A program made the position numbers and the translations under genes. The notes beneath the pieces are model-generated. The model did no database searches and was not told the DNA's origin. It saw nothing but the letters and a program-made list of their open reading frames with translations. From assembly GCA_000182565.2 (NCBI GenBank), contig KQ257451.1: a stretch of 64,000 bases of DNA, one strand, 5' to 3'. This stretch comes from Spizellomyces punctatus DAOM BR117. Its lineage: Eukaryota. This document shows positions 12,960-56,435 of the stretch, in pieces (the first letter of the stretch is position 1; each line of letters begins with the position of its first letter).

Positions 12960-14783
12960 TCATGGTGAGTCAAGCATGTATGCAATCGCCGCTTCGACGT
13001 TGCCACCCTATCCAAAGATAAAAGTCAGGCTCAACTGAACTTATAAAATGACCCACTCTTGAAGACTCACGGCGGCAAGCAGGGCTCGAATACATCTATC
13101 TTTTTCCTGAAGCGATAAGACCACTGGAGCGTGAGTAGTTTTGCAATGGTAAGCAGGTATCTAAGATCTCACCTCAAAGCCCATATCGCGTAATGTATTC
13201 TTCACAAAAATGGTACAATGAGATCGCAGAAGAGATGCTATATGATAAACACATGCTTCATACCAATTGCTCGGCAAACCGCTCTTCGTGTGATTCAGTC
13301 AAGGACTGTGGCTCGACTTGTGGTTGAGCTGGCGCTGCCGTTGACGCTGTCAGCGGTTCAAATGGCTGAAATGCGCCCTGAAGTTGTTGGATTTGTTGCA
13401 TCATGCTCCCAAAGTCGAAATGTGGTGCTGCAAGAGATGGGGCGGTAGTTGAGGACGGTGTATTCGGTGCGGCCGTCGACGGGGGCTATTGCAGCGAGGG
13501 TTAGTAATCAGACCGACCAAACTAAAGATGATTTAATAGATTAACCTGCAAGAAGTTAAGGGAGTTGAAAAGAGCAGGATTTCCAAATGGTGCCGTGAAT
13601 GGTGACGAGGGCAAGGATGCAGAGTTGGAAGTAGGGGATGTGGTTGGCGGTGGCGCCCAGGGATTTGGAAGAGCCTGGTTGTTGATTCCCTCGCTTGATG
13701 ATCGTTGTTGCGCACCCAGTAACTCTGCAAACCGACGATTTGCCTCGTCTATAGAATCCCTTCATTAGACGTTCAAACACGTCTATTTGACTGGTTGATT
13801 ATTGGACGCACCTGTGCTCGTGTCCTCTTCCCGCATTTGACTTAAAGGTGCTTGTATATCGTGATATATGGAACTTAGAGCATTGAATCCACCAGGGATG
13901 TTTTCGATGTTCAGCAGCTGCCTGTCTGTCCTCACGTCATGTCACTTTTGGTTCAAATCCAGATTCCAGAAGTAAGGCATCCGAGGTAACATACCAACAT
14001 TTCTCATCATTTCCTGGCTCTAAATTTTTCATACGATATTAGATGGTTAAAGCAATCACGACATGCAAAGCCCACAGGACGGCATACAAACCAATGCAGG
14101 GTTCCTCATAGTGTCGAGCATCTCTCTTAGGAACTACACCATCGATGACAAAAGTCAGCTACATTCGCCAGATCCAATTAATTTTCGCTTTGACGATTAC
14201 CCGAGGATCATTCAGCGTTTGGCGAAGAGAGGGATTCGACTCAGCTAAGCGTGCAATCCTTGGGTCGTTCTCCAACATGGTACGCATAAATTCTGGATTC
14301 TCCAACATACTTCGGACAAAAGGATTTTCTAACAAGGCGCTCATATCTATTTGCAGACGGTTAATAGATTTCGGTGTTAAGGGCCAGGTTACATCTATCG
14401 CTGCAGCCACCTGGAAGTCCAAAAGCATTACGAGCCGCGCCTCCTGCTCCTGGAACGTTATGACCGGCTGCCGCCGCAGTACTTGCTTCTTCCGCAGCAC
14501 GATTTCTGGCTAATTTTGTAGCATGAACTGTGATTCCATCTTTCAATCCGAGCGACGATACTGATTCTTCATCGTCCTTGAGCACGCGGCCAGCATAAAC
14601 TAGGCGGATCTCGTCCAATGGTACATTGACGCGGGATGCCAGTTGAGCTTTCAGTTCTGCAAGTGTCTCTTTCTCAGGATCTGTAACTCTAAGTGTGATG
14701 TCGGTTCCAACATCGCCTAGCCCGGGTGCTAGACGGAACCGGATGTTGATGGGCGATGAACTGGCATCAGTGGAGCTAGACAT
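12960..14783 (-). CDS. DSK2: Ubiquilin/Dsk2 (UBL-STI1-UBA), multi-exon
   Basis: UBL IRLVYAGRVLKDDE; STI1 repeats LLENPFVRSMLENPEFMR; NIENIPGGFNAL; UBA LRDMGF...ALLAA/GGNVEAAIAYML. Confidence 0.9.
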
Positions 14784-14789
14784 AATCTC

Positions 14790-14880
14790 TGTGTAGGCTG
14801 TTTCTAGTGTAGAGGTGACAGAAACTGGCACTAGCTACTACACCAGGGAATAAACCGGCGACAACCGGTTCGGAAAAGCC
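14790..14880 (-). ncRNA. Putative Fanzor omegaRNA, copy 1 (scaffold ~14805-14880 plus ~15-nt flank-derived guide GAAACAGCCUACACA)
   Basis: Minus strand GGCTTTTCCGAACCGGTTGTCGCCGGTTTATTCCCTGGTGTAGTAGCTAGTGCCAGTTTCTGTCACCTCTACACTA; stems AACCGG/CCGGTT and TGGTGTAG/CTACACTA; 74/76 identical to copy 2; resembles the SpuFz1 omegaRNA as recalled. Ends are inferred. Confidence 0.8.
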
Positions 14881-15518
14881 AACTAAGCTACTACTAGGCA
14901 ATTATACACGCAATACGTAACGGTTGTTTCTAACCGGATAATTGCCCACCACCACACGCGGTCCCTACTAGGCCTTGATCTGGAACTCTTGATGGCATTG
15001 AAGGCATCCAGGAGTGAATCGACTGGGCAGCATCACAAGCTGGGGGATTTTCAGTGACAAGGCTTGGAGACTAAAAACTGCATGTCAGTAACAGAATAAC
15101 ATGAAAAGAGATGATGCCATTGGTACATACCAACCAAGCTCAACTAATGTGGCAGTATAATAGCAGCTTTGTTGGTTCCGAGTGATTGTTGCTGGTTCCA
15201 GTTGGTTGTAGTCATCGGCAGGGCAAGGTGCAATGTGGGTCGTGATGAGTGTTGCGCAGATGGTTTGAGAGTTGAGGAACTGGTGAGGAAGGGAAGAGAC
15301 AGGAAAGGCCCCCCTTTTATAGACCTTGAGTGTGGCAAATGGGGTCCAGCTGAAAAAAAAAAAAAAAAAAAAACATTACATTAGCATGCCACACCGCAGT
15401 TTGGAGAACATTAGCAGGACGTCTTTCAGCGATGGGGGTTCTGATTATGCAATATAATTAACCGGATTGATCCGGATGATAATGGGTACTAGTGCCATTT
15501 ACTGTCAGCTCCACACTA
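14805..15518 (-). mobile_element. Non-autonomous TIR element, Fanzor 'ghost' copy 1
   Basis: 30-bp TIRs 14805-14834 and 15489-15518 (26/30 match, both ending in TA); homologous to 55745-56435; minus-strand 5' flank reads CATA (15517-15520); no long ORF. Confidence 0.88.
15314..15321 (-). promoter_or_regulatory. TATA box (TATAAAAG) inside ghost element 1, followed by a CT-rich tract
   Basis: AAGGTCTATAAAAGGGGGGCCTT is conserved in both copies; the same TATAAAAG core lies upstream of GAPDH. Confidence 0.6.
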
Positions 15519-15691
15519 TGTACTGCAAACAGCGTTTCAAATTACGCGTCATTAGTCATTTGAATTTCTGGAACGTTTGGTTCTTGGTAACAATTGCAAG
15601 GGAAGATCCAAAGAGCTTTTGTTCGTTTTCAAGACTTGCCACGGATCTTGCTCCTGGGGTCGGAAATCTCAACGACGGTTGCAAAAGAGAG

Positions 15692-21496: not shown

Positions 21497-24080
21497 TCAT
21501 TGTATGGTACATCCACTTGAAGCCTGCCGTGCCTGCAAACGTGCTGCAGCTTCTACAGCCTTGTCTCGCTGTATCTTCTTGAGCCTACGCTCCTCACGAC
21601 GTTTCCGCCTTTCTTCTTTCGCCAATGAATGTTCAGCAGGACTTCGAGTATAGTTATGTGACGAACTTCCAGCAGTTAAGCCCTCGGCAACCTCTCCTTC
21701 TGGATCGACTCGTGGTCGTTTCGCTGCACGAGTTGTGTAATCGCGATATTGCTGCCGTCTAAGAGCCGTTGAATGCGGTGCACGTAGAGCTAGAAAACCA
21801 TGCCTGTCTGTCAGCCACAAATGCAACACCTACATCCTCTCTTCCTTTAGTTTACCTCCAACACCACCACCTTCAGTAACATTCTGAGCAACTTGTCTAG
21901 CTGCATGGTCCGCAAACGTTTCGATTCGGTAAGAGAACATTCTCTCCCTCTCCTCACCGTTAGCGTTCTCCACTTCTCCAAATGTTGGTATAACATCTTT
22001 GACCATGTCACCGTTTCGAACCGTCAAGAAACAGCTGTTGTCGTCAATAAAATTAATTCCAACTGATCCCAGTGTCTTAAATTCACTTTGGACATCTGAT
22101 AAAGTAACATCCGACGGAAAATCATAGACCTTGAATACATGTGAACGATCTGGGATATCTTTGCATTTGCGCGTGTCAGTATCAAATAGAGACCATTTCA
22201 TGTAAGGTGTTAGCCCTTACCTTCATCCCCTACTATGTTCATGTAGGGTATGTCCGATCGCATAATGTGCAGCTTATTGAGCGCAGGCTGGAAAGCGGGG
22301 GAGTCGAATGATAGAGGCAGATTTCCTTCATTCTTTACGATTTGCCCCATCAACTTTACAAATACCACTCCCGTTGCATAAGCATCATAACCAGCTTCAT
22401 GAAAATTATCAGCATCTTCATATCCGGTGAAGTCGGGATGCACAACTGTGGTCGTAGGATATTTAGGGCATTGTCCGCGATTTCACCAGGTATCACACCC
22501 ACCGATTGTTGGATACGTGAACGGTTTGAGAGAAACTCTCCGAAGAACATCCGACAATGCGGACTGCATAATAAAAGGCTGCGCAAACTAACTTGAGTTG
22601 GGGCTCTTACACTGACATGTCGGATATTGCCCACCTGTACATCAGACTCTGAATGTGCGATGTACTTCGTGTCGTATATGCTGTTTAGGTGAGGCACAGT
22701 TAATCATTGCGTCTTTGAGAGGAATACAAAAGCACCATACACGCACACAGGAAATAGATTATGCAGCCCTTGCTTGAATTCCTGCACATTCTCGGGTAAT
22801 GATCGGTGAAATTTCTCATAGGTTTGGCATAAGTCTATCACGCCATACATTAAAGACGCCGGAAAATGCAGAATGATGCGTGTGAAGACGTAAATCTTAC
22901 CAAGCATCACGTTATGGCCGATAACAGGTTTTTTGGACCTGCTAATCACTTCGATCACTTTGCGGAAACCGATCAACTGTTCCAGCTCATTCTGACACTA
23001 AATGTTATTGTGGGTGCCTTAAAAAAGGCAGACAGTGCATATTCCCACCTCCAAGTACGCCACTCTATTATTGGACCCCGATTTTCGCTCCTCATTTGTA
23101 AGCTTACGGATAGTAACATAGCCGGCGGTCCCCTCAGTGCTTAATGCCGAATTATATCTAGCGAGACAGTTTAATCAGAAAGATGTTGCAGTAAGAAGCT
23201 CATAAGAAGCATGCATTAGTGTCACCTCTTCTTGATTTCTTGATGTATCAGTCTTCGATGGAAAGAGCTGGGAGCTGCCACCTCTAAAGTCTTCTCGGAA
23301 GAATTTTGCAACCAGTTCTGAACCGCCTGTCTGCCAGGCCCAAGGAGCACACACGTCAGTGTGCCACCCATGCAACACGGCACCGAAAAGCAGTTGGGTA
23401 AGTGGCATACCGTCCCGACATGCTTACATCGTGGAATCCATAAATTCTCGATTTGCACCCTCTATTGGGATGTCATTGCCCTGCGCAACTGCTCCAATCT
23501 TTTGGCGTGCTTCTGCTTCGTCATCAAGGTTAAGAAATGGAATACCTAGTCCGTGCATGTCCCACATTAGTACATCCACACGTCTCCCCGACAATATCGT
23601 TAAACACTGTCGGCATTTACCCTGTGATATCCATTTATTGAAGTCAAACTTGTTTCCTCTCAAAAATTCTAACGATCCTATTTGAAATGAGTATTGCCGA
23701 TCGAGGCCCAGGGTACGGGAACCAGACTGCGGGAAAACGTAGCAGTTGAACGGCTTCGCTACATAAACTTTTCTTCCACTGTCCCAGGTAAAAGTACACA
23801 GTCCAAATTGAATCACTAGGAAGTTCTGTGCAGACCGTCGAATTTTTTCGTAGCGTTCCTGGACTGTATCAAGAAAAGCAATCTGATAAGGCCTTGCCGT
23901 TCCAATTCCTTCACAAAGCGCAGTATGCGGTCCAGTCAATAATTTATTAACACGTTAATAATATATGCCCGAATTTCACTCACCAGATAGTTCGGTATCT
24001 ATAGCAATGAAGTCTGCTTCTTGAACGGCTTCTTGAATGTTGGGAAGCAAAGCCTCGAAACTGTTACGAAGAACCTCCAT
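21497..24080 (-). CDS. PARN: Poly(A)-specific ribonuclease (CAF1/DEDD, R3H, RRM), multi-exon
   Basis: ADFIAIDTELSG, IQFGLCTF, FDFNKWISQG, R3H SSFHRRLIHQE, IGFRKVI, GHNVML, IYDTKY, HEAGYDAYATG. Confidence 0.93.
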
Positions 24081-24769
24081 GCTCTTCGCTGGTTGATAAT
24101 GTCCACCCAGTCTGTCACGTAAGCTCCAGAGAGAGCCAGATGGAAGACGAACGCAAAATCCGGGTTCTGTCGCTAAGTTTCTTTGTAGCGGATGGTCTGT
24201 TTTCCCACCTTGTGGGGAAGCCGGACGGCTGGCCGCAGCGCAGCGCGAGCGGCCTAATGTGTGGGTAAAACGATTGCACAGGCGAGATCGCACAGGATCA
24301 AGAGATACGCGAACAGTCGATATGTTTAGAGCTGCAATCTGCACATCAGATCCCGACTGGCTTTTCAAGGCAGAGAAGCGAAATCGCATGTTCAGTCCCC
24401 TACGAGCTCATCGTCACGTCCATGGGATTGCACGTCGTTTGGCGGCTCACGTGATGCATTCGGACGAATTCGGACAAGTCGTGCGCGACGTCCTTCTTCC
24501 CCTTTTCGCACCCACCCACTATTGAGCACACTCCTGCCGAGGCGCGACATGGATTGACATTCCATCAGCTCTCCACACTTTTCTACGCTCGTCACAGCAA
24601 CCAACCGACTTATTTTCTGCGACGTACGCCAGAGTAGAGTACTCTCAAAGCTTACCTCCCCTGCCTATACTCTCCGTGTACTTCCCCGCGATAGACTATC
24701 ACCTAGAGAGAAACCTGCCATTAACTGTATTGCAAGCTCTCTGAGTGCAAAGGCTGCGTCGTGTTTGCG

Positions 24770-28146
<3,377 letters not shown>

Positions 28147-28439
28147 ATTTCTCCTAATTCGAGATATTGGGAGGCTTGGCTTAACTAATAGGATACTTCG
28201 GACCAGAATGTGGAGGAGAAAACAACTGAAATGTGCCTGAAGTAGCGTGCTACAATTATGAGCCTTCCGATGAAAACGGCACCATGATGTGAAAATTTGG
28301 TATGGCACTTTTGGATGTTAGACTACCTGGGTCCGAGTAATTGTTATTTTCTGGTCGTTGTGGCCATTTAGATCGTTATTTGTTGCCTTGTGCTTTGGCG
28401 GACTGCCATTCATATATTGTGATTGAGAGGGATGCCGGC

Positions 28440-31031
28440 CTACAATATTTTGGTTCCAAGGCTGTACATAAGCTCCACACCCTTCAATTCCCTTACTCGA
28501 TCTAGTGCGTCGGCTGGAAGAAAGAAAGTCATTTCTCTAACTTATAATGTACAAGTCCAGCGCGTGAATATCGATCGCACTTACAATTTTGGCATAGTCG
28601 AGCACAGGCTATTGCAAGGTTTCGTTGTACTGTAGGCATCTTGGCGCTACGGAGGAGGTACACGAGGGGTTCGGTTGCGTTAAGTTTATGCAACTTCTTG
28701 GCGTGGTTAGCTGGGGGATTCCAAAGTTATTACGATAAATCAACAGGAAAGGCACATTGGAGGACATCGGTTGTCCGTACTTTTGGTCGCACACTCGGCG
28801 ATACACAGCGCAATATTGCCTGCGGTTTTTTCATCTTCTTTAAGTTCCTGTCCTTCTGACAATTCAAGGAGAACATCCACAAGTGCTTCAAAGCCATTTT
28901 GCTTCTCCCACTCTGCCACTCTCCGCTCTCCACCTTTCAGCCAGGCTGCTAGAACTTGGGCTGCTGCTGTCCTTGTACCCTCTCCAGCAGGGTCACGAAT
29001 AAGGCTTATCATGGGAACAATATCCCACCACCCGTCCAGCGCCACTGTAACTTCTTCCAAGTGGAAGCGGAGAAGCTTTGCGAGACATGAGATGGAAGCT
29101 CGTGGGTGTGTTGTTAGAAGGTGTACGAGGGTCGTAATTATGCTGTGAGTGCTGAGGAGCGTTGGGTGTGCTGGTGTGTTGTGCAAAAGGTTGTGATATG
29201 TGGCAAGGAGGTGAAGGACGAGAGTGGAAGCCGTAGATGTCGGGTTGGTAGGTGAAAGCCGGTGTATCGTTTCCCATATGGAGTCGATGAGAGGTTCGTG
29301 GTACTGCTTGAGGGCCGCTGTAAATTTGGGATTCGAGGTGCCTGCGATTGCATCAATACAGCGACAAGCATGAACTGTCAGCGCCTCTGTTGTTTCGTCA
29401 TTAGCCAGTTTGTACTCTTTGACATGAATGGGTAAGGTCGCTAAAAGCTTGTCGGGCGATACCCGCCATTTGACCATAACGATGTCAGGGCCTTTCGGAG
29501 TATATCGCATTATTCTCCCAAGCAGTTTAAGCATATGCCCGACAATAGTAGAGCTAGTGGCGACACCATCCGTTTCTCCACCTAAAAATGCCAGCACGAA
29601 TCTTCCAAATGTTTCTCCAACCACGTTGGAGTGGCAGAGGGCTTCCGCGAAGGTGTCCTCAGCTACACCAGAAGAAAGTATTTCGGCAGCGGCGCTGATG
29701 GTTTTGAGAGGAGGTTTTTGGGTGGCAAGCATGGTCGTTATCATGTGGTTTAGGTATTGACAAAGTTCTCGTCGGTTGGCATCGACGCCAGAGGTGGCTC
29801 GCGCTATTACGGGAAGAATAAAGTTGACTGATGACGAAGTGAGAATGTCCGGGTTGAGGAGGCGATGGAAACCACCACATAGTCGAAAGGCGTCAGAAAC
29901 GATAGTATCGGTGTCCAATAGCCTTACGAGCATGTCCGAGGCAGATACTATACGGTCATTGTACTTGTTCGATGGTGGTAATTCAATAGCATTTTTTATC
30001 TCCCGTACGAAACCGTCCAGTAATCCTTCCATGATCATGTTGGAACCATCATGTTCTAAATCTTCTTTCAGCGCTTCCTCAGCTTTCATATCTAAATGCT
30101 CCCTCTCTATACCATCTAGCAGTCTGTCAACTTCGGCTAGGGTAACCCCAGGGTTACATACAGTCTTTTTGCATCGATTGATTTTCTTCTTAGCTTCCTC
30201 ATAGTCTGTGACCATCTGCTTGACTTTAAGAACATCTTTGATGGCTTCCTCATATTGTCGAAGACCACGGTGACCTTCTGCCCTTCTCCACAGTGCTTTT
30301 GCACAACTCGCATCAACTTTGAGGGCTTCGCTACAATCTTCGACAGCTTGCTTGAACTCCTTTAATCGGAGATATGCAAGTGCACGGTTGGTGAACAGAG
30401 TGGCGTCAACGATAGTCTTGGACGGAATCAGCCGGTCCAGTGTTAGCAGCAGTGGATCGCTTTCTTGAGGCGGGTTCAGATATATGTTGATGGCTGAAGT
30501 GTATTCTTCAATCGCTTCATGGTATTTACGATCCTTGAAATATTTATTACCAGTTTCACGATGCTGATTCGCTGATTGACGTATTTTTTCTGCAGCTGTC
30601 ACTCGCTTCGTTGGCTCATGCTTCTGTTTTGTGGATCCTTTCTTTTCCGCTGCTAGCGCAATGTTTCTCTGTTCCTCTTCTGCATCTGGGTTAATAGCGT
30701 CCCACTTTGAGTAATCGAGCTTGGGGGACCCTAACGGTGCTCTGGTGTCTCGTTTTGGCAGTCGGATAGGAGCTCGATTACTGGCATCTGAACGTGACGT
30801 CGCCGCATCACTTTTATTATCCTGTGTCAACTCTCTCTGTGCCCAAGCTTTCTCTTCATCCGTGACCCTCCCCGATAATATCTCGTTCATTTTTGTAGCT
30901 AGATGGACAGATGATAGCTTTTAGCAAAAACAGGTCAGCCAGAGATGTTTACCCAGAGACATACTGTAGCTATCTACAAATTCGTCAAATTCAGCCAATT
31001 CAGCCTTGAGATCTGCTAGAATGTCAACCAT
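28440..31031 (-). CDS. TTC12: TTC12-like TPR + armadillo protein (axonemal dynein assembly)
   Basis: ETGNKYFKDRKYHEAIEEYTSAI, FTNRALAYLRL, KALWRRA TPRs; ARM region GNIALCIAEC; C-terminus RVRELKGVELMYSL; N-terminal DEFVD motif. Confidence 0.72.
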
Positions 31032-31273
31032 ATTTGCCACTGTTGTGCTCAATCGCCCAGGAAACGTCCATATACCACGGACACTTTGAGGAAACACGTA
31101 GGCGACGCGGCATCCAAGAACACGCCATTTGGTAAGCGGCTGCGCAAAATGCATACTATGATATTCCAAAAACAAGTGGTTGCATTACTACAAACAGGAA
31201 GAGGCCATATAATCTTTACGTAGAAACATAATACAATAAGATACAGGATGGTGGACAAGTGTCTATAGCCATG

Positions 31274-32212
31274 TCATACGGGAGGTGCTTCTGACGAGGC
31301 CAAAATCACGGTTTGCAACCTTCGGGCTTGAATGTAATCCCCAATCGAGCGCTGCAGAGAAAGGTAATATGTCAGTCCACTTTGGATTCTCCCTAAGTTT
31401 GAATACTCAGCATACCCGCTTTCATAATACATACCATTAGGATGAAGAAGCCAATAAACATTAAAAAGTACGAAAGCCAATAACTCTCAACAACGACGTT
31501 CTCATCGTCCTCTGGCTGTTTGTCAGGGTCATAGGGATCATAGTATTTTAAGTCATCCTGGGCGTCCCGTGTTCGCAAGTAAAAGGCGTAACGAATAAGG
31601 GTAATGCCGAAACCACTACGAGCACCAGCTCGTGCAGCGTGAGATGTAGCCAGGATCGCAGTCAAAAGGAATCCAATGAAGTCAAAGCTCATGGATACCA
31701 ACATGTTGACAAAGTATGTGAAAAAGTCTCCAACAGGCATGCCTACGCACAGAGACACCAGAGTTAATTTCGCCCGAAGACCTGAAAGCGACGAGACATT
31801 GACTCGCTAGCCAGCAATACATACCTTCAATGAGCACTTCACCATCTTCTCCAATCCCATTTGTTATCACCGTGGTCTCATAGTATGATGGAGCTGGGTC
31901 TTGGACAACCTCAGCATACGACGGTGGTTCGAACTCTTCGTAGGTCTTGCCTTCTGGTGCCGCGGACACCTCTGGCTTTGCACTAAGGTTTGCAAACACC
32001 CCGTCGTTCCTTGTAGTCACCAGGGCAGACCGTGAAGGAGGCGGCGGTATTGGCGTCGTGGCGGCTTCTGAACTTTGCAAAGGTGCTTCCAATGCAACAT
32101 TGGCCCCGTCATTGTCCAACAAGGGACGTGCCTCAAAGAGGACGGTGCCCTCTTCCCCACTGCGGGTATGATCTGCCTCTCCTTCCGGCAGACGGTCGTA
32201 TGCTCTCATCAT
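31274..32212 (-). CDS. BSD2: Bsd2/NDFIP-type Rsp5 adaptor
   Basis: NDGVFANLSAKP, PPSY motif, GMPVGDFFTY, SMSFDFIGFLLT, SHAARAGARSGFGITLI. Confidence 0.88.
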
Positions 32213-32447
32213 CTTTACTAGTTGTAATTTGGGTTGTTGGCAGAGTGATCAGTCGGTCGGCTAATGGTGACCCGAAGCTATGCGAATTTGTGCGTGACGT
32301 GGACAAAAGGGTTGGCGTTGCTTCAGACTTGCCGCCAGCCAGGATCGAACCCTCTGCTATTACCTAATTCCACGTGATCTCGTTCATGATGGGTTTGGAG
32401 CATCGTCCTTCCAGGTGCTCACAATTCGCAGCCGATTGTCCATCGTC

Positions 32448-35400
32448 ATGGCAGCGGATGACTCGAGCGTTTTCTCCAGACTGTCTGCAACTGGAGAAGC
32501 TCGGGGGACTTCAGGTGCCAGGACGCGGTTTCGAGGGGCTGCCTCCGTCGGTGACCATGCGAGAGGCGCCAAAAGCGCATTTGCTTCTGTATTTTCGTCA
32601 ACACCCAGCCGTGGGCGTGATGGGGGAGTTCGGGGTGGGCGAGGTGGTGGGGCAAAGATTGCCGCTTCTAAAACATGGGTGAAACCGACGGGAGACCACA
32701 TAGGGGCGGTGACACCCAGAGGCAGTAGGCGAGGTGGGAGGGGAGCGTCGATGACTTGGGTGAGGCCAAGAAGTGGCACCACCCCGCAAGAGCTTAAGCT
32801 TCCGACACATCGAGACGAGAGCGTTGCGAGACAGGGTATGCTGACAGTCATGATCCAGTAGCTTGTATAAGAGCTGCCGACCCCAACCGTTCCGGACTGG
32901 AGAAGCCACCCAAGGCCCTTTTTGCTAACGATTACTCCACCTCACCAGCTCCATCGCGCGGTAACATCTCACAACAGACGAATTCAGTTGCTATTTCTCC
33001 AATGTCGTCGTTTACACAGAGGCAAACAGCACTGACACCCACGCCTGACCACTCCTCTGACGCAGATGACAGGTAAATTCAAATATACTGGTTTCCATAG
33101 GTTCAGACCCCAAACTGATAGCTAGTTCATATAAGCATTTTGAAAGTGTCTCGTGCCGAGCGATTCGCTTCACAGCCTGTTCATAACCGCTATATGGAGG
33201 TTTGCAAGATGATGCTATATTACGGAAAGTAGCGTCTTTAAGGCGGACAATGACTCCGTTCTCCTGCAGATGAAAAAGCTTCGACCTGCCCTGATGAAGA
33301 AGTATATTGCTGAGGGTAAAATGGATGATCCAAATAAGAAATATCGGCTTGAAGATGCGCGTGATTTTGTCGGAGAGTGTGAGGATATGTGTCCTGAGTA
33401 CGAGCGTCACGAACGAGAGTATCAGAAAGGGTTGATGGAGTTTGAGAAGGTACAAAACCTTTTGTCAACTTGAGGATAGTCTGGGATAGGATATAAACAT
33501 CAATGCAACTAGATTCCAGGCACAGACCGAGTTGATCACGCGAAAGCCGTTAAAAGATATCGACGTTCCGCCGCAGATGATGAAAAGCCGCTACCATGTG
33601 ATGTGCGACCGCCATCTGTACTGGAGGTATGCACTAGTTTCTCACATGCTCTGGTCCGTCTCCGGTGTGACCAATTGACGGAGAACGTAATTATCATAGC
33701 GAACGTTGAACTACCTGGTGCACGAATTAATACCAGAATATGACTTGCAACGCACGTACGGTTTCATTCGTGATAGGACACGAGCTATCAGGAAGGATTT
33801 GACGCTCCAGAATTTACGCGGCCCTGAAGCCGTTGGTCTGTTTGAACGGATCGCTCGCTATCACCTTATGTGTTCTCAGCGGCTATGCGCAACGATAGAT
33901 ATAAAGCAGGAATATGAACAGCTGGGAAAAAGTAGGAAGCTTGTAACCTCTCTAACCTTTGAGGGTTAGTTCTGGGTACTGACGCATCTTACGTAGCGCT
34001 ACAAAGTCTGATGGAATTCTACGACGATCTCAGGGAGGAGGGCAAAAGAATGCCTAACGAGGCCGAGTTCCGAGCGTACTATCTTTTGCATCATGCGTTC
34101 AACCAGGATGTTCAATCTAGCTTCGAGAGGAAATTTATCAATGATCCAATTTTGTTGGATCCGCACATGCAACTGGCGATCCGATTAAGAAGCCTGTTAC
34201 CCCGACTAGATCTCCATCACGATGATGAAGATGAGGACTATACAGAAGAAGGGGATACCATAGGAGAAGGCGGTTTCGAAGCATACGGATTATTCTTCAA
34301 AATCATCAAGGAGCGAACTACCCCATATCTATTAGCATGCGCGGCGCACCCACACTTCCTAGTTGTCCGTCGACATGCATACAGACACATGGACAACGCC
34401 CTGTATGTTTTTCCTAATGCAGTGGACACACTGACGCCGGTGGCAACACTCGTGGAACAGCTGGGTTATGACAACGAAGAAGATGCTATCGTGGACCTAG
34501 AATACTATGATATTCCAATCAGGGACGTGGAAGGACGATGGTACGCAGAGATTGGAAAAGTAAAAATCACCGGAACTGATGGAAAGTCACAAATGGTCCC
34601 TGGGAAATTCAATGGTATGGAAGGGTGGAAGGGCAAAATCTAGGATCTGATTGTTGACCGAACCCTCTTGCTTATTAGATGCTAAGAGAGTTTCTCTTCA
34701 ACCGCGGGTGGCAAATCGACTTCTCGAAGGGAAGTTGGGAGATGTCACGGACGCGGACGTTATAGACGGCAATGTACCTGAGATGACTCAAGAAGTGCCC
34801 GACTACCAAGGGCAATCATCGGAAGTCGTTGCAATGTCGTCCATTCCAGGCGGAGTTCCTACTTTTGGACAAGTTGCTGCTACGACAGCTCGGCTGCCTA
34901 GTTCATCCGTTGGAGGAGGTACTTTCTCAAATGCTTTCGGTTTTGTCAACCAGCAACAGTCCGTCTTGGCAGGCCCGTCAAGCGGATTTTTTGGACAAGG
35001 CGGTGCTTTCATGGGACAAGCGAGTATCGCTAGCGGTCAAGCGACTCGCAAGGTCGGACAAGGAGTCCTTCCCCTCCATCCCGTACAAGTGTCGCAGTTG
35101 CCGTTCCCGTCACTTTCATCTTCGATAACCATGTCACCCCAGTCACAAGCGGGTGCATGGTCGTCTTTTGGTCAGCAGGACCAACCACCGCAAGCGGCTC
35201 CCACATCTGGCGCACATCTCAACATACCCAATTTAGGCGTGCTACAACAACCTTCAGGTGGTGGCCCACCTACGCCGGCCGGATTGGTTACTCGAAAGCC
35301 TGACTTGGTCGAGCAACGAACGGACGTCGGCCTTATAGTTTCCCCCTCGTTGACGGTTATCCCCCTAGAAGCGCAAGCTGGTAAGTTGTACTCAGTGATG

Positions 35401-38400
35401 GCTCATCTACATAGGTAGTGCTTAACAGGGTCCACACAAGGTCCACAATTACCGCGTGCCGAATCCCAGCCCTCCGTCGTACCTTCCTTCACACCCCCTG
35501 CGGTTCCGACCCGACCCGAGACACCTCCAGAGCCCGTCATTCCAGGTTCGCCATTAATAATTCCGCGCTTCAAGTACAAAGAAACTGTACTTACGCGATT
35601 CCTACCCATCAGAGGACACTGAGCTGTTAGAAAGAGAACGTAAAGAGGCGGAGGCGCGCGCCCGGATCGCACGCCAGAAGTCTGAAGCTTCAAAATACCT
35701 AGCGGCTCGAATACTGGCGGAAACAATACACCAGTGCATGAAGGAATTGGCGGAAGAGGTTTCAATGCGCGAAGATATTCGTGCAAAGTGGAGACTCTTT
35801 GCGCATCGCCTACCAGCGCTTCATGCTAAAGAACAAGCGAAGCGAGAGGCTGTGCGAACTTTCCTAAATTTGGTGGGCTCGGAGGTTGCCCCACCCAGAG
35901 TCTCGTTCCGGGAGCAGGCTAAAGCCTTGATGGGGACAGCAGGAACTGCCTTTACTATGCTTGGGTCCGCAAATAGGGACGAGGAGATGGCGAGGGCAAC
36001 GGATGAGGTTCGTCGTAAAGATGACACACCAGAATTCACTTGGAGCTGATCGTATGCCTTCTCTCAGGTGGCTGCCCTTGAACAGCAACTGATGGAGCGC
36101 ATCGACCTCGCTGACCTCACGTATCCCATACTGCGCGAAAATCACAGCACTCGGGTTCATGGCCATACCCTTCACTACAAACTTTGTATCACAACCCCCA
36201 CCTTTCACCTCCTTTCCACCGATAAGCAAAGGTTACCGATTCAATGGCTGAAAGCAAAGTTTGGCGGCGCGAACAATGCAATGCCGACTTTGGCCAACGA
36301 GGTTGGAACCGAGGAATTGCAGCGGACACGGGTACAAGATGGTGAATGGGATTGCTGGGCGGTTGTTCGGCATGTAACAGATGCCTTACCGGTGTGTATG
36401 CATCTTTTACCGCCTATTGTTCAATGCTAACGGAGCTGCCTCGCGCGGATAGGAGGAAGCTATGAAGACTCTTCATGGGATTAATGCGGCAATCTTCCAA
36501 TTCGACCTTTTTGGAAGTGGTAAAGATAAAGGGTGAGTGGGTTTTATGTTTGAGCGCTGGCTCTGCCAACGTTTCTTAGATATGGTGCTTTCAGATTTTA
36601 CTTCAACGAGGAGCGATCTCGGTTCGTGAACTTCATCAACGCTCTGCCGAAGCAAACTCTTAGAAACAAAATACCGCTCTTGTTTGTGTATTGGTCTGTT
36701 CCCGAATTGCCACGTGCCGAATTAGAGACCAGGGTAATTTTTATTCTGACGAAAATGCATGTATCCGAAGTGATCCTCATAAGATATGGGTGCAATAGGT
36801 TCGCCAAGCCTTTCAACTGAGCGATGTGCAAGTCCATGGGCCGATATCCGATATAGGGTGGCTGGAGATTCAGTACACCGACAAGTTGAACGATTTGATC
36901 AAAGCTAATGAATACCTGGTGGAGGCAGTGGAGATGTTGGTGGCAAGATCGCAAGCTGAACCGGAGATGAACTGGTTCGGAATGGATGGTGAGTGGGCAT
37001 TGTGGCATTGTTCCTAAGGAAATCTTACTTATGATTGCGGTGTCTAGGGAAAGACGTACTAGGAGAGTCAATGCTTCGCATTCATTTCCGGGAACACTCG
37101 TACCTTTTGCAGTCCCGCTTTCCACACCGAATGGCGCACATCCCTGAACGTAATATACCTACCTTCAACACACTGATTCGAATGTACAATGCTGCGATGG
37201 AGGTATATGCTTACGTCCTGGCTGGACCAGACGTAGAGGGCCTCAACTATCCTCCATACGAGTTTGCCACACCGGGATGCCCGCCGGTGGAAGGAGGAAC
37301 GAATGTTCCGTTGAATTGGAATTCGATGGGACGACTGAAAGAGATGAGGATGATGCTGGCACAGTTTGTGTTGCCACCTCTACGTCAGCATGGCCGTTTT
37401 GTCGTGGATGAGTACGTAGACCAGCTTGGGAAATCACTGGATACTAATTTGAGGTAAGCCGCTGGCTCGCTACCTTGATGCGAGTTTCATCTAATCTGAG
37501 CATTGTGCGGCTGACTGTTTAGAGGGTTATGGTTGATTTACTGCACATGGATATCTGATGTTTGTGATACGGTTCCTGCCATGCGGGACACAGAGCGACG
37601 CAGTCTCTTTGACGCATTCATTCAGCTTTTCGAGGGATATAGCCGAACGGCCGCTACAGGTGACAAAGAGACAACGTTGCTCAATAAACATCTCGGACTT
37701 CGCTAATGTGTGGGCCCATTTGCACAGTTGCTGTTCGATTTCCATTTGGCGAACTCGCCGAAGTCGTGACGCGGGCTATCTTTATTCATCTAGACACGCA
37801 GTTTACCGCAAAGTTCCGAATTGCACCCTACCCACGTCAGCTTGCTGTTTATGCCTTGGAGGGTTTCGGAATCGCGATGACAAAGGTCATTGACAATTGG
37901 TATCAAGAAGTCATGGAGTGGTTGAGAATAGAGGCGCCAGAATATGAGTCAGAAGATGAGACGTCTGTGCGCGAAGATGATGGTGTTTCTGGCGATGATG
38001 TGAAATTACCTTCCATGTAAGAGCGCACCTGTTTAAGTATGCGGTAAACACTCCTTACAAGCATCATTTCAGATCTGATGGAGAAGTCAGTCCGAAACTG
38101 AACAGCATGGATCTGCTGAAATCGTCTCACAAGCGAGTGCTGCCAAGCGGCCTTGCTAATGACGACGGTGAGATGTCACCTCCCTCGCCAGCAAAACGGA
38201 AGCGTGGCGACGTACTCTTAGGGGAAGGTGAAGCAAAGTACGTGCGACAGTTTTACGTTACCGTGAAGTGTACAGTAAGGAGTTATAACCTCTTCATTTT
38301 TAGAAAACAACGACAGGATGAGGTGGTCCTCGAGAATACCAGATCACAAACGCGCACCCCCTCACCTCGGCACTCCAATGGTGTCGACCTCACTACGCTT

Positions 38401-38622
38401 CAGCAACAGCTGTGTTCGGCTTTGGAGTCTTCGAAGAAAACCTTGGCTAGAACACGACTTTTGGAAGAGCTCGATTATTTGGATACGCTAACAGACAATC
38501 AACTTGATGAAGGCGACTTGCCGTCCTTGACTGAGGAGGATGAAAGGGAGTTGGAGGACCTTCTTGCGGCAGGAGAGAGCGACTATGGGCGAGCAGCAGA
38601 TTGGGGCAATTTTTGTACATAG
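32448..38622 (+). CDS. SAC3: SAC3/GANP mRNA export factor, multi-exon
   Basis: [68 protein letters not shown]. Confidence 0.9.
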
Positions 38623-38883
38623 ATTGACGCACTTTTTGTTTAATATTTTTTCATGTTGGACTTGGTGGATTGGTGATGATGGCTTTCCTGAATGATTTTT
38701 CTTTTATTTATCTTTTGGAAAGAGTGTTTGCACCAAAGTCTCAGCGTTGTCACGTGGACAAGAAACCCAGTCGCGCTGCCTTCAGGCGGGGAAAGTAAGG
38801 ATCTTCAACCATCTTCACTTACGCACGCGGGCCCAACCGTCGTGCTACAGAGACGCCGTCTCCCTCAACCACAACCATACACA

Positions 38884-40037
38884 ATGCCACAGGCTCAGGT
38901 TCTTCGCAACCGACCCGGTATCCGCCATGAAGTATTATCCATCCGTGCTACAATCCTGCTGTGTTTTCCCACTGACCGTTTGTGTTCTATTCACCACAAG
39001 CAGGATTGGTCGCAGTGGCCCACGATACCTCTTGAGCAAATGGAATCTACCTTCTCCGTTCAACAATATATCCAAAATATGGTCCGCCACGATGCGTCTG
39101 ATGTCAAAAAGATCGTCGAGGTACCCGAAGGTCAGGACCGAGATTTATGGCGATACGAGCTTTTACGGTATTTGTTCCTGAGTTCTGTCAAAGTGTGTAT
39201 TGTTGGTGAAGGAGGCGAGCTTATGATACATATATTGGAAGACAAGTATGTCAGGATCTGAACAATTTTGTTGTTCTGTTGGAACCCGAGTGTACTGCAT
39301 CGTCGTGTCCAGAAATGAAAGCTTTAGAATGGTTGTATCTCTGTGCTGGACATCCGAATCCTCAGCAGGTATTTTGGAGTTTGATGGCTAGTATGTGACA
39401 ATATTGGTGGTTGATAGTCTTTGCCAGTGTTCGGCACTCGATTATATTATACATACCCTGGACAGCGCGACAGCGCTGTTGAATAGTCAAAAGTATTTCC
39501 CTAGTAGGTGAGAGAAATGTTTATTTATCTTTACCGCTGCGATCGGCCAACCTCATGCTGATTGGGATGTGAATATCTAGGGTGTCGATACCGCCAACGT
39601 CATTAAAGCATTTTTCGAATGTTACCAGAAGATTGTACAGAATTTTTGCACATGCGTGGTTTCATCATCGGGAGGTATTTACTGAATTTGAGGTTGGTAC
39701 TTGTGCGTTGGGTTTGTCTGCTTGGTATATGTCGCTAACTTTGTCAAGTAGATTGAGTCGCATTTGTATGCGAGAGTTTTATACATGATAAAGTACTTTG
39801 ATGTAAGTTTTTCGTTAGCGGATTGTATTTTGCTTGGGCCGGCTTTGAAATCTTGCTTGCCATAGATTATGCCAGATGACGCATTGGTCGTGCCCGCCGA
39901 TGCCTGTATGACTGATGTGGGTGACTTCTTATTATCCGTATGTGAGCGACATTCCAACTAATGATGGTTTTTTTGCTGTGTATTTTTTTTTTCAGTTGCC
40001 CGAGATTGATCGGTCCTCAATGGTCAGTGACGAGTAA
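38884..40037 (+). CDS. MOB4: MOB4/phocein
   Basis: [72 protein letters not shown]. Confidence 0.9.
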
Positions 40038-40232
40038 AGTGGGCTGATGGGGACTGAATGGGGGATGGACGTAGGGAGATGCTCATATGCATCGCATCGT
40101 TATTTAATGCCTTCTTGTGAATATACTTCTGGTAGGACTGTATGGGTGCTGGATACCCAACAAGGATAGCAATAACCGTAATCTTAATATCAATAGTTCA
40201 CTACCCATACCCATCTCAAGCATAGAACTACC

Positions 40233-55729: not shown

Positions 55730-55820
55730 GATGTTACATGTATTTAGTGTAGAGGTGACAGAAACTGGCACTAGCTACTACACCAGGGAATAAACCAGCG
55801 ACAACTGGTTCGGAAAAGCC
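55730..55820 (-). ncRNA. Putative Fanzor omegaRNA, copy 2 (scaffold ~55745-55820 plus guide AAUACAUGUAACAUC)
   Basis: Same scaffold as copy 1 apart from the compensatory pair AACCAG/CTGGTT. Ends are inferred. Confidence 0.8.
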
Positions 55821-56435
55821 GAGTAATTCCCTCCTTACAACCAACCAACTACCACTAGGCCCAATTACACATGCAATACATTACGGTTGTTTCTAACCGG
55901 GTAACTAAGCCCACCACACGAGAGAAATCCTACTAAGCCCTTGATTCCGAAATTCTTTAGTCAGAGGATGTTCAGATACTAATTAAACCAGAATTAGACT
56001 CGGAATACACATGGGAAAATACAAAGATAATGCATACCTGCAATCATTGCAATATAGTAGTAGCAGCGTTTGCAAGGGGTTATGTTGTTTTTGTCGGGAG
56101 GGCAAGGTCCTCAACACCAGAGCGGCATTCTCATGATGGACTTGAGAGTGTTGCTTGAACGTTGCGCAGATGCTTTGAGTCGAGGATGGGTAAAGAGGAA
56201 AGAGGGAAGAGACAGTGAAGGCCCCCCTTTTATAGACCTTCCGCATGCACCTCACCGCAGTTTAAAAAAAGAAAAAAATACGTTAGCATGCCACACTGCA
56301 GTTTGGAGTTTGGAGAACATTAGCATGCCACACCAATCTGAGCGATAGATGGGGGTTCTGATTATGCGATATGATTAACTGGATTGATCCGGATAATAAT
56401 GGGTCCTAGTGCCATTTTCAATCACCTACACACTA
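55745..56435 (-). mobile_element. Non-autonomous TIR element, Fanzor 'ghost' copy 2
   Basis: 30-bp TIRs 55745-55774 and 56406-56435 (25/30, ending in TA); termini, TATA region and A-tract colinear with copy 1; minus-strand 5' flank reads TATA. Confidence 0.88.
56227..56234 (-). promoter_or_regulatory. TATA box inside ghost element 2
   Basis: AAGGTCTATAAAAGGGGGGCCTT, identical to copy 1. Confidence 0.6.

Follow-up and report, generated by a model that had tools for sequence, protein, structure and literature searches.

A probable ghost Spu-1 element with a predicted Fanzor omega-RNA guide in the leader of a ubiquilin/DSK2 gene of Spizellomyces punctatus

A stretch of 64,000 nucleotides of Spizellomyces punctatus DAOM BR117 (GenBank assembly GCA_000182565.2, contig KQ257451.1), referred to as the window, was analysed for a 714-bp inverted-repeat element located next to the start of a ubiquilin/DSK2-type gene. 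Our analysis suggests with high confidence that this element is a member of the published ghost Spu-1 family, i.e. a non-autonomous element in which the Fanzor1 gene was lost or never present and the omega-RNA gene at the right end is retained, with the anatomy described for the family. Removal of the element restores the CATA target-adjacent motif (TAM) directly before the sequence from which the guide would be read. The explanation favoured here, that the ghost omega-RNA recognises the empty form of its own insertion site, is considered probable as a whole. That cutting of an empty allele actually occurs and serves retention at the DSK2 locus is proposed tentatively and by analogy.

The element, named copy 1 to distinguish it from a second copy in the window, occupies 14805-15518, including a TA duplication at each end, and is oriented on the minus strand. 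Direct reading of the plus strand at 14781-14806 gives CAT (the minus-strand ATG, with its A at 14783), 21 nt (14784-14804) and TA (14805-14806). The element body follows at 14807-15516, and beyond it are the second TA (15517-15518) and a TG (15519-15520; CA on the minus strand). In minus-strand orientation, the left flank ends in GCAGTACA followed by TA and the element, and the right end runs from the element through TA and GAAACAGCCTACACAGAGATT into the ATG. Taking out the body and one TA leaves CATA and then the 21-nt flank as the reconstructed empty site, and in the filled allele the four nucleotides before the target are ACTA, not CATA. Copy 1 is thus inserted at the TA of a CATA, which it duplicated, in the intergenic region that separates ubiquilin/DSK2 from its divergent neighbour, 21 nt before the ATG; this region was only ~196 bp long before the insertion. 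The inverted repeats at the ends are imperfect, and a 43-nt arm pair was also detected. No open reading frame (ORF) of at least 80 aa is present inside 14807-15475. The features of the insertion, together with the second copy, are as follows.

14805-14806, unstranded: TA, right-end copy of the target-site duplication (TSD) and final two nucleotides of the scaffold (direct reading, and PMC13565253 on the 3' TSD).
14807-14836, unstranded: right-end inverted repeat of ~30 nt, 25 of 32 positions matching the left-end repeat.
15487-15516, unstranded: left-end inverted repeat (repeat search and direct comparison).
15517-15518, unstranded: TA, left-end copy of the TSD and 3' half of the TAM (direct reading).
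15519-15520, minus strand: CA (TG on the plus strand), 5' half of the CATA TAM (direct reading; CA is conserved at published ghost loci).
55745-56435, minus strand: second ghost copy, 691 bp with TA duplications (end motif, inverted repeats and TA at both ends; same orientation as copy 1).

A first-pass annotation, made from the letters of the window, had placed the end of the element 21 bp upstream of the DSK2 ATG on the same strand, had predicted CATA directly before the guide-matching flank once the element and one TA are removed, and had described the occupied allele as lacking the TAM. Direct reading bears out these statements. The TAM of SpuFz1 is reported to be CATA, and any single base change in it to abolish cleavage (PMC10432273).

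The second copy was recognised from a 17-nt end motif, which has four matches in the window against 0.40 expected (none of 100 shuffles reached four). Its two ends match each other at 24 of 32 inverted-repeat positions, and TA is present on both sides of the element in 2/2 copies of the window. The dinucleotide 5' of the left repeat is CA in one of the two copies, namely copy 1; in copy 2 it is TA.

Comparison with the published omega-RNA revealed that the right end of copy 1 is, as judged from its sequence, a Fanzor omega-RNA scaffold. In PMC10432273 the omega-RNA (88-90 nt) consists of a 75-nt right-end region and a 14-15-nt guide derived from the flank, and a 2026 review assigns the 5' TSD to the TAM and the 3' TSD to the scaffold (PMC13565253). 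For the comparison, the A of the right-end TA was taken as position 75, and the minus strand was checked against the 18 nucleotides named in the structure section for SpuFz1.

14805-14879, minus strand: 75-nt omega-RNA scaffold of ghost type, with stem 1, a 6-nt linker AUUCCC and stem 2 with a 3-nt bulge (15 of 18 named nucleotides, fold and identity with copy 2).

With a shift of 1 nt in the 5' part, fifteen of the 18 named nucleotides match. The exceptions are G22, C40 and G70 of the canonical SpuFz1 scaffold, where the ghost has C, U and A; positions 40 and 70 form a U-A pair here, and the ghost is 1 nt longer between positions 20 and 29. When every position on both strands of the window was scanned in this way, only the two right ends scored 15, and three unrelated places scored 14. 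The consensus fold of the two copies has stem 1 at 9-28, an unpaired AUUCCC at 29-34 and stem 2 at 35-75 with positions 46-48 unpaired. The unpaired 29-34 corresponds to the published "A29 to C34" linker, and the 3-nt bulge in stem 2 is a published hallmark of ghosts. Folding of the single sequences gave z values of -3.8 (copy 1) and -2.45 (copy 2).

The scaffold is identical at 73 of 75 positions (97%) between the copies, against identities of 0.37-0.69 in segments of the element interior and 65/75 in the left-end 75 nt. The copies differ only at 14857 and 14866, which pair with each other in stem 1 (G-C in one copy and A-U in the other), so that one of 24 pairs shows a compensatory change. 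In the expressed RNA of the family, the alternative letters, those of copy 2, were found in 15,269 of 40,212 reads (38.0%) at 14857 and in 15,155 of 41,160 reads (36.8%) at 14866; shares so nearly equal are what co-variation of the two partners of the stem-1 pair would produce. A search of the whole window against Rfam at the gathering threshold found no family, and a Fanzor omega-RNA family may simply be missing from Rfam. An 8-nt motif of the scaffold had no occurrence in the main text of two papers, whose sequences are presumably in figures or supplements.

The position of the scaffold fixes the predicted guide, which would begin at the first flank nucleotide.

14784-14804, minus strand: 21-nt spacer between element and ATG, in the DSK2 5' leader (direct reading; contiguous with the coding sequence in a contig of run X4).
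14790-14804, minus strand: predicted 15-nt omega-RNA guide, first base 14804 (position 76 onward of the scaffold register; guide length from PMC10432273).
14784-14789, unstranded: predicted SpuFz1 cuts in the empty allele, between 14789/14788 on the non-target strand (after bases 16/17) and 14785/14784 on the target strand (after bases 20/21), taken from the in vitro cut positions in PMC10432273.

The first-pass annotation had equated this guide with the DSK2 5' untranslated region. The equation holds in so far as the segment lies in the leader and is transcribed contiguously with the coding sequence, but it is too wide, since a published native guide of 14-15 nt takes up 14804-14790 and not the full 21 nt. 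The same annotation had called the reconstructed site a perfect TAM plus target. The reconstruction of CATA plus target is correct, but most of the perfection follows from the way the element is laid out: a guide transcribed from the flank is bound to match it, and the TA is the duplication, so that only the CA carries information. Among the dinucleotides of the window, CA has a frequency of 0.072. At copy 1 it is found on the left flank only, the right flank being GA when read outward. Analysis of the window for further targets of guide 1 revealed two other sites with three mismatches, neither of them after CATA; no other site combining at most three mismatches with CATA is present in the 64-kb window. 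The predicted cuts in the empty allele would reach the base before the DSK2 ATG. An action of the guide on the DSK2 mRNA was considered and rejected, as guide and mRNA are of one sense and SpuFz1 is reported not to cut RNA (PMC10432273).

RNA evidence was taken from sequencing runs aligned to the window. The threshold for aligning reads of run X22 was 90% likeness, and 141,094 of the 148,089 reads aligned only in part; depth over the element therefore represents the whole family and not copy 1 alone. In this run the reads of DSK2, which are few, map to the minus strand and those of the neighbouring gene to the plus strand, which indicates that the first mate is sense. The depth over 14813-14983 is 23,745-40,132 on the minus strand versus 74-146 on the plus strand. 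Further upstream, the minus-strand depth rises from 3.65 in the bin 15269-15325 to 267 in the bin 15212-15268. Two features of a transcription unit were found in this part of the element.

15071-15130, minus strand: 60-nt spliceosomal intron in the ghost transcript, GTATGT..TACTGAC..AG (splice joint 15070>15131).
15316-15322, minus strand: TATAAAA box, putative ghost promoter (conserved block in copy 2; RNA depth rises just downstream).

The joint 15070>15131 is carried by 920 minus-mate X22 reads (5 on the plus strand), three X4 contigs and one X11 contig, and the TATA block CCTTTTATA is present at 15313 and, in copy 2, at 56226. With a conserved TATAAAA and a spliced 60-nt intron upstream of the scaffold, the ghost looks like a small RNA polymerase II (pol II) transcription unit. 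The main-text passages of the Fanzor papers compared here contain no mention of an internal TATA box or a spliced intron in ghosts. On the plus strand an A run of 22 bases (T on the ghost sense strand) lies at 15352-15373, upstream of the TATA box; the corresponding run of copy 2 is shorter and has interruptions.

Run X4, although labelled "DNA?", skips the GT..AG introns 14347-14410 and 15071-15130 and leaves the untranscribed spacer uncovered, and it therefore behaves as a complementary DNA or transcriptome run. One of its contigs connects the element with the adjacent gene, the first part of which is as follows.

14781-14783, minus strand: start codon of the ubiquilin/DSK2-type gene, A at 14783 (reading frame; Pfam ubiquitin 2.5e-12 and, in the next exon, UBQLN1 2.4e-13).
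14411-14783, minus strand: DSK2 coding exon 1, followed by the intron 14347-14410 with GT..AG on the minus strand (skipped by the X4 contig; ends CT..AC on the plus strand).

Exon 1 gave the ubiquitin match and the next ORF piece the match to UBQLN1, which is ubiquilin-1-like, so that DSK2/ubiquilin is a fair name for the gene. No other in-frame ATG is present upstream of 14783 in the stop-to-stop frame 14361-14834. The X4 contig is colinear with the window over 14411-14832 without a single difference, running from the DSK2 coding sequence through the flank to 28 nt inside the element. X4 depth is absent over 15383-15610, and the contig of the plus-strand neighbouring gene starts at 15666. The continuity from coding sequence to element places the guide segment in the DSK2 leader, and it means that DSK2 transcripts either start in the ghost or are read out of it.

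Taken together with the published system, these observations suggest the following mechanism. A TATA promoter within the ghost would drive its transcription on the minus strand, and the transcript would be spliced once and continue through the 75-nt scaffold into the flank, so that the copy-1 omega-RNA would carry the 15-nt guide 14804-14790. SpuFz1, supplied in trans by a full-length Spu-1 copy elsewhere, would load this RNA; ghost scaffolds are reported to be active with SpuFz1 in human cells (PMC10432273). The loaded nuclease would recognise only the unoccupied form of the ghost's own insertion site (CATA plus flank) and would cut 16-21 nt downstream of the TAM, at positions -5 to -1 of the DSK2 ATG, and a site already filled (ACTA plus flank) would escape cutting. 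Should there be a homologue or sister copy that lacks the element, repair templated by the filled copy would put the element back. For cutting, SpuFz1 from another locus and an element-free copy of the site would have to be present together in one nucleus, and the step of retention or homing is proposed by analogy with TnpB.

Several points weigh against this explanation. The family assignment is strong but indirect, as it depends on the fold, on the architecture as described in print and on the 18 nucleotides named there. No match to the Fanzor or TnpB family was obtained with the 14 listed ORFs of at least 200 aa (13 frames) in the 64-kb window, which are ordinary eukaryotic genes. The X22 bin 14756-14812, which spans the predicted end of the omega-RNA in the copy-1 flank, has a family-wide depth of 615 on the minus strand without reported pile-ups of starts or ends. 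The left flank of copy 2 is TA, so that its reconstructed site would be TATA plus flank, without a TAM. No element-skipping joint was found in the four runs, in which no DNA contig crosses either junction (X7 and X11 are short pieces, 3 and 8 records), and this gives no evidence either way. A search of the literature gave nothing usable on the ploidy or sexuality of S. punctatus. The first-pass annotation had counted excision products among the targets; such products would regain CATA plus target only if excision left no scar, and a cut-and-paste element that duplicates TA is normally expected to leave a break or a footprint instead. Excision of the DDE type itself already produces the break, according to the review PMC13565253, and the same review names only TnpB and IscB, and not Fanzor, as systems with demonstrated restorative homing.

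Some of these points also speak for an alternative in which the relation of TAM and guide is a by-product or relic. CATA plus flank would then merely record a TA-targeting transposase with some preference for CATA, and the insertion would be fixed, with no second allele, no scarless excision and no role in retention, while ghost guides may serve Fanzor in trans elsewhere. This account, which we regard as rather unlikely, gains from the fact that the TAM/flank relation is built in for every copy, and from the failure to see an empty allele in the four runs, which hold no DNA contig over the junctions. It gains further from copy 2, which has no TAM and yet retains 73/75 scaffold identity, so that conservation of the scaffold is independent of a cleavable empty site. 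No homing by Fanzor is given as demonstrated in the text of PMC13565253, and the discussion of PMC10432273 raises a repertoire of ghost guides on diverse sites. The CA of copy 1 argues in the other direction: its presence on the left flank only is unexpected under a symmetric transposase preference and expected under a TAM requirement, and a TAM-linked constraint is therefore favoured. The lack in the 64-kb window of a second site for guide 1 with CATA and at most three mismatches likewise speaks against this account. It is also conceivable that copy 1 has been exapted as promoter and 5' leader of DSK2, the old promoter having been displaced by 714 bp and the guide relation being incidental. 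The X4 contig that enters the element from the DSK2 coding sequence fits this well, as do the gap in X4 depth over 15383-15610, by which no transcription is seen to enter past the left end, and the TATA box and spliced intron on the DSK2 strand. Nevertheless, this contig ends at 14832 and the true 5' end of DSK2 is beyond its reach, a leader from the ghost promoter would hold four upstream ATGs after splicing (15215, 15033, 15007 and 14998), and the depth over the element stems from all copies of the family. We consider exaptation unlikely as the explanation of the layout; it would in any case be compatible with recognition of the empty site by the ghost omega-RNA.

In a further variant, which combines both ideas and which we hold to be quite improbable, the ghost would now be the working DSK2 promoter and leader, with omega-RNA and DSK2 frame on one pol II transcript. 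Loading or processing by Fanzor would then compete with DSK2 expression. Error-prone repair of the predicted cut at -5 to -1 in an empty allele would, moreover, damage the DSK2 start and thereby favour copying back of the element, making the ghost a drive-like retention device on a proteostasis gene. Finally, the element could be a plain TA-targeting miniature inverted-repeat element of Tc1/mariner-like type without any RNA-guided part, its likeness to TAM and guide being coincidental. The TA duplication and inverted repeats, the lack of a nuclease gene in the window and the lack of an Rfam match in the window are what such an element would give. The 15 of 18 omega-RNA nucleotides in exact register with the TA, the recovery of the published two-stem fold with its A29-C34 linker, the 97% scaffold identity with a compensatory change and the abundant, strongly stranded RNA make this coincidence very improbable. 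Recognition of the empty site by a ghost omega-RNA accordingly remains our preferred explanation.

Tc1/mariner-type non-autonomous elements typically show TA duplication, terminal inverted repeats, a length of a few hundred bp, no transposase and insertion near genes. To our knowledge, they are not known to carry a gene for a nuclease-guide RNA. The element described here differs from them in a right end under RNA-structure constraint and in the asymmetric CA of its left flank. No transposase partner was found in the window.

Comparison with the published S. punctatus elements revealed a close agreement. A total of 42 Fanzor loci and 134 ghost Spu-1 loci are reported from this species, the ghosts having two ~30-nt inverted repeats and no Fz ORF, with CA conserved upstream of the 5' inverted repeat and the TAM regions drawn at the left end; no transposase was found within the Spu-1 inverted repeats (text passages of PMC10432273). 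The copies in the window are alike in the absence of an Fz ORF, in inverted repeats of ~30 nt, in CA before the 5' repeat (copy 1 only), in the conserved 75-nt right end with two stems, linker, 3-nt bulge in stem 2 and flank-derived guide, and in abundant RNA on the predicted strand. Their lengths of 714 and 691 bp compare with a published conserved region of ~550 nt plus inverted repeats. Copy 2 differs in lacking the CA, and copy 1 differs in nothing that was tested. Full-length SPu-1/SpuFz1, for which putative TA TSDs were described by Bao and Jurka in 2013 (PMC3627910), shares with the element the TA duplication, long terminal inverted repeats, the right-end omega-RNA and the composition of CATA from CA and TA (PMC3627910, PMC10432273); it is ~2.1 kb long and has a Fanzor ORF of 633-638 aa, which the element lacks.

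The TnpB and IscB systems of IS200/IS605 and IS607 elements resemble the present layout in having the TAM in the left flank, the guide in the right flank, an element-free joint that equals TAM plus target, and an immune occupied site (reviewed in PMC13565253; abstract of PMC10690162). They differ in scarless excision and insertion without duplication, whereas both copies here have a TA duplication. Their nuclease is encoded in cis, often together with the transposase, whereas here the nuclease would come in trans. Homing is demonstrated for TnpB/IscB and not for Fanzor (text of PMC13565253).

The layout of TAM and guide is the ordinary, already published layout of the ghost family and is not new. 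As this logic is published, the locus adds an example and not a principle. It is new only as an example and possible test bed, in which the guide lies in the DSK2 leader, the predicted cut falls at the ATG and the spliced ghost transcript is continuous with DSK2. The target is unique within the window, lies at the start of a gene and is immune in its filled form, and the locus could therefore serve as a test case for native Fanzor homing or retention. A modest new point is that ghosts appear to be spliced pol II units that are able to read into neighbouring genes. The analysis also illustrates that a Fanzor ghost locus and its TAM/guide logic are recognisable from raw sequence alone.

Copy 2 showed further minor features. 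It lies directly after the end of a plus-strand gene, and its left repeat is more decayed, with three mismatches to the 17-nt motif. The counterparts of the ghost intron and TATA box are found near 56037 and 56226, respectively. A 21-nt insertion of the copy-2 type appears with the same letters in loose ends of X4 contigs at 14886, which indicates that a copy-2-type subfamily is also expressed.

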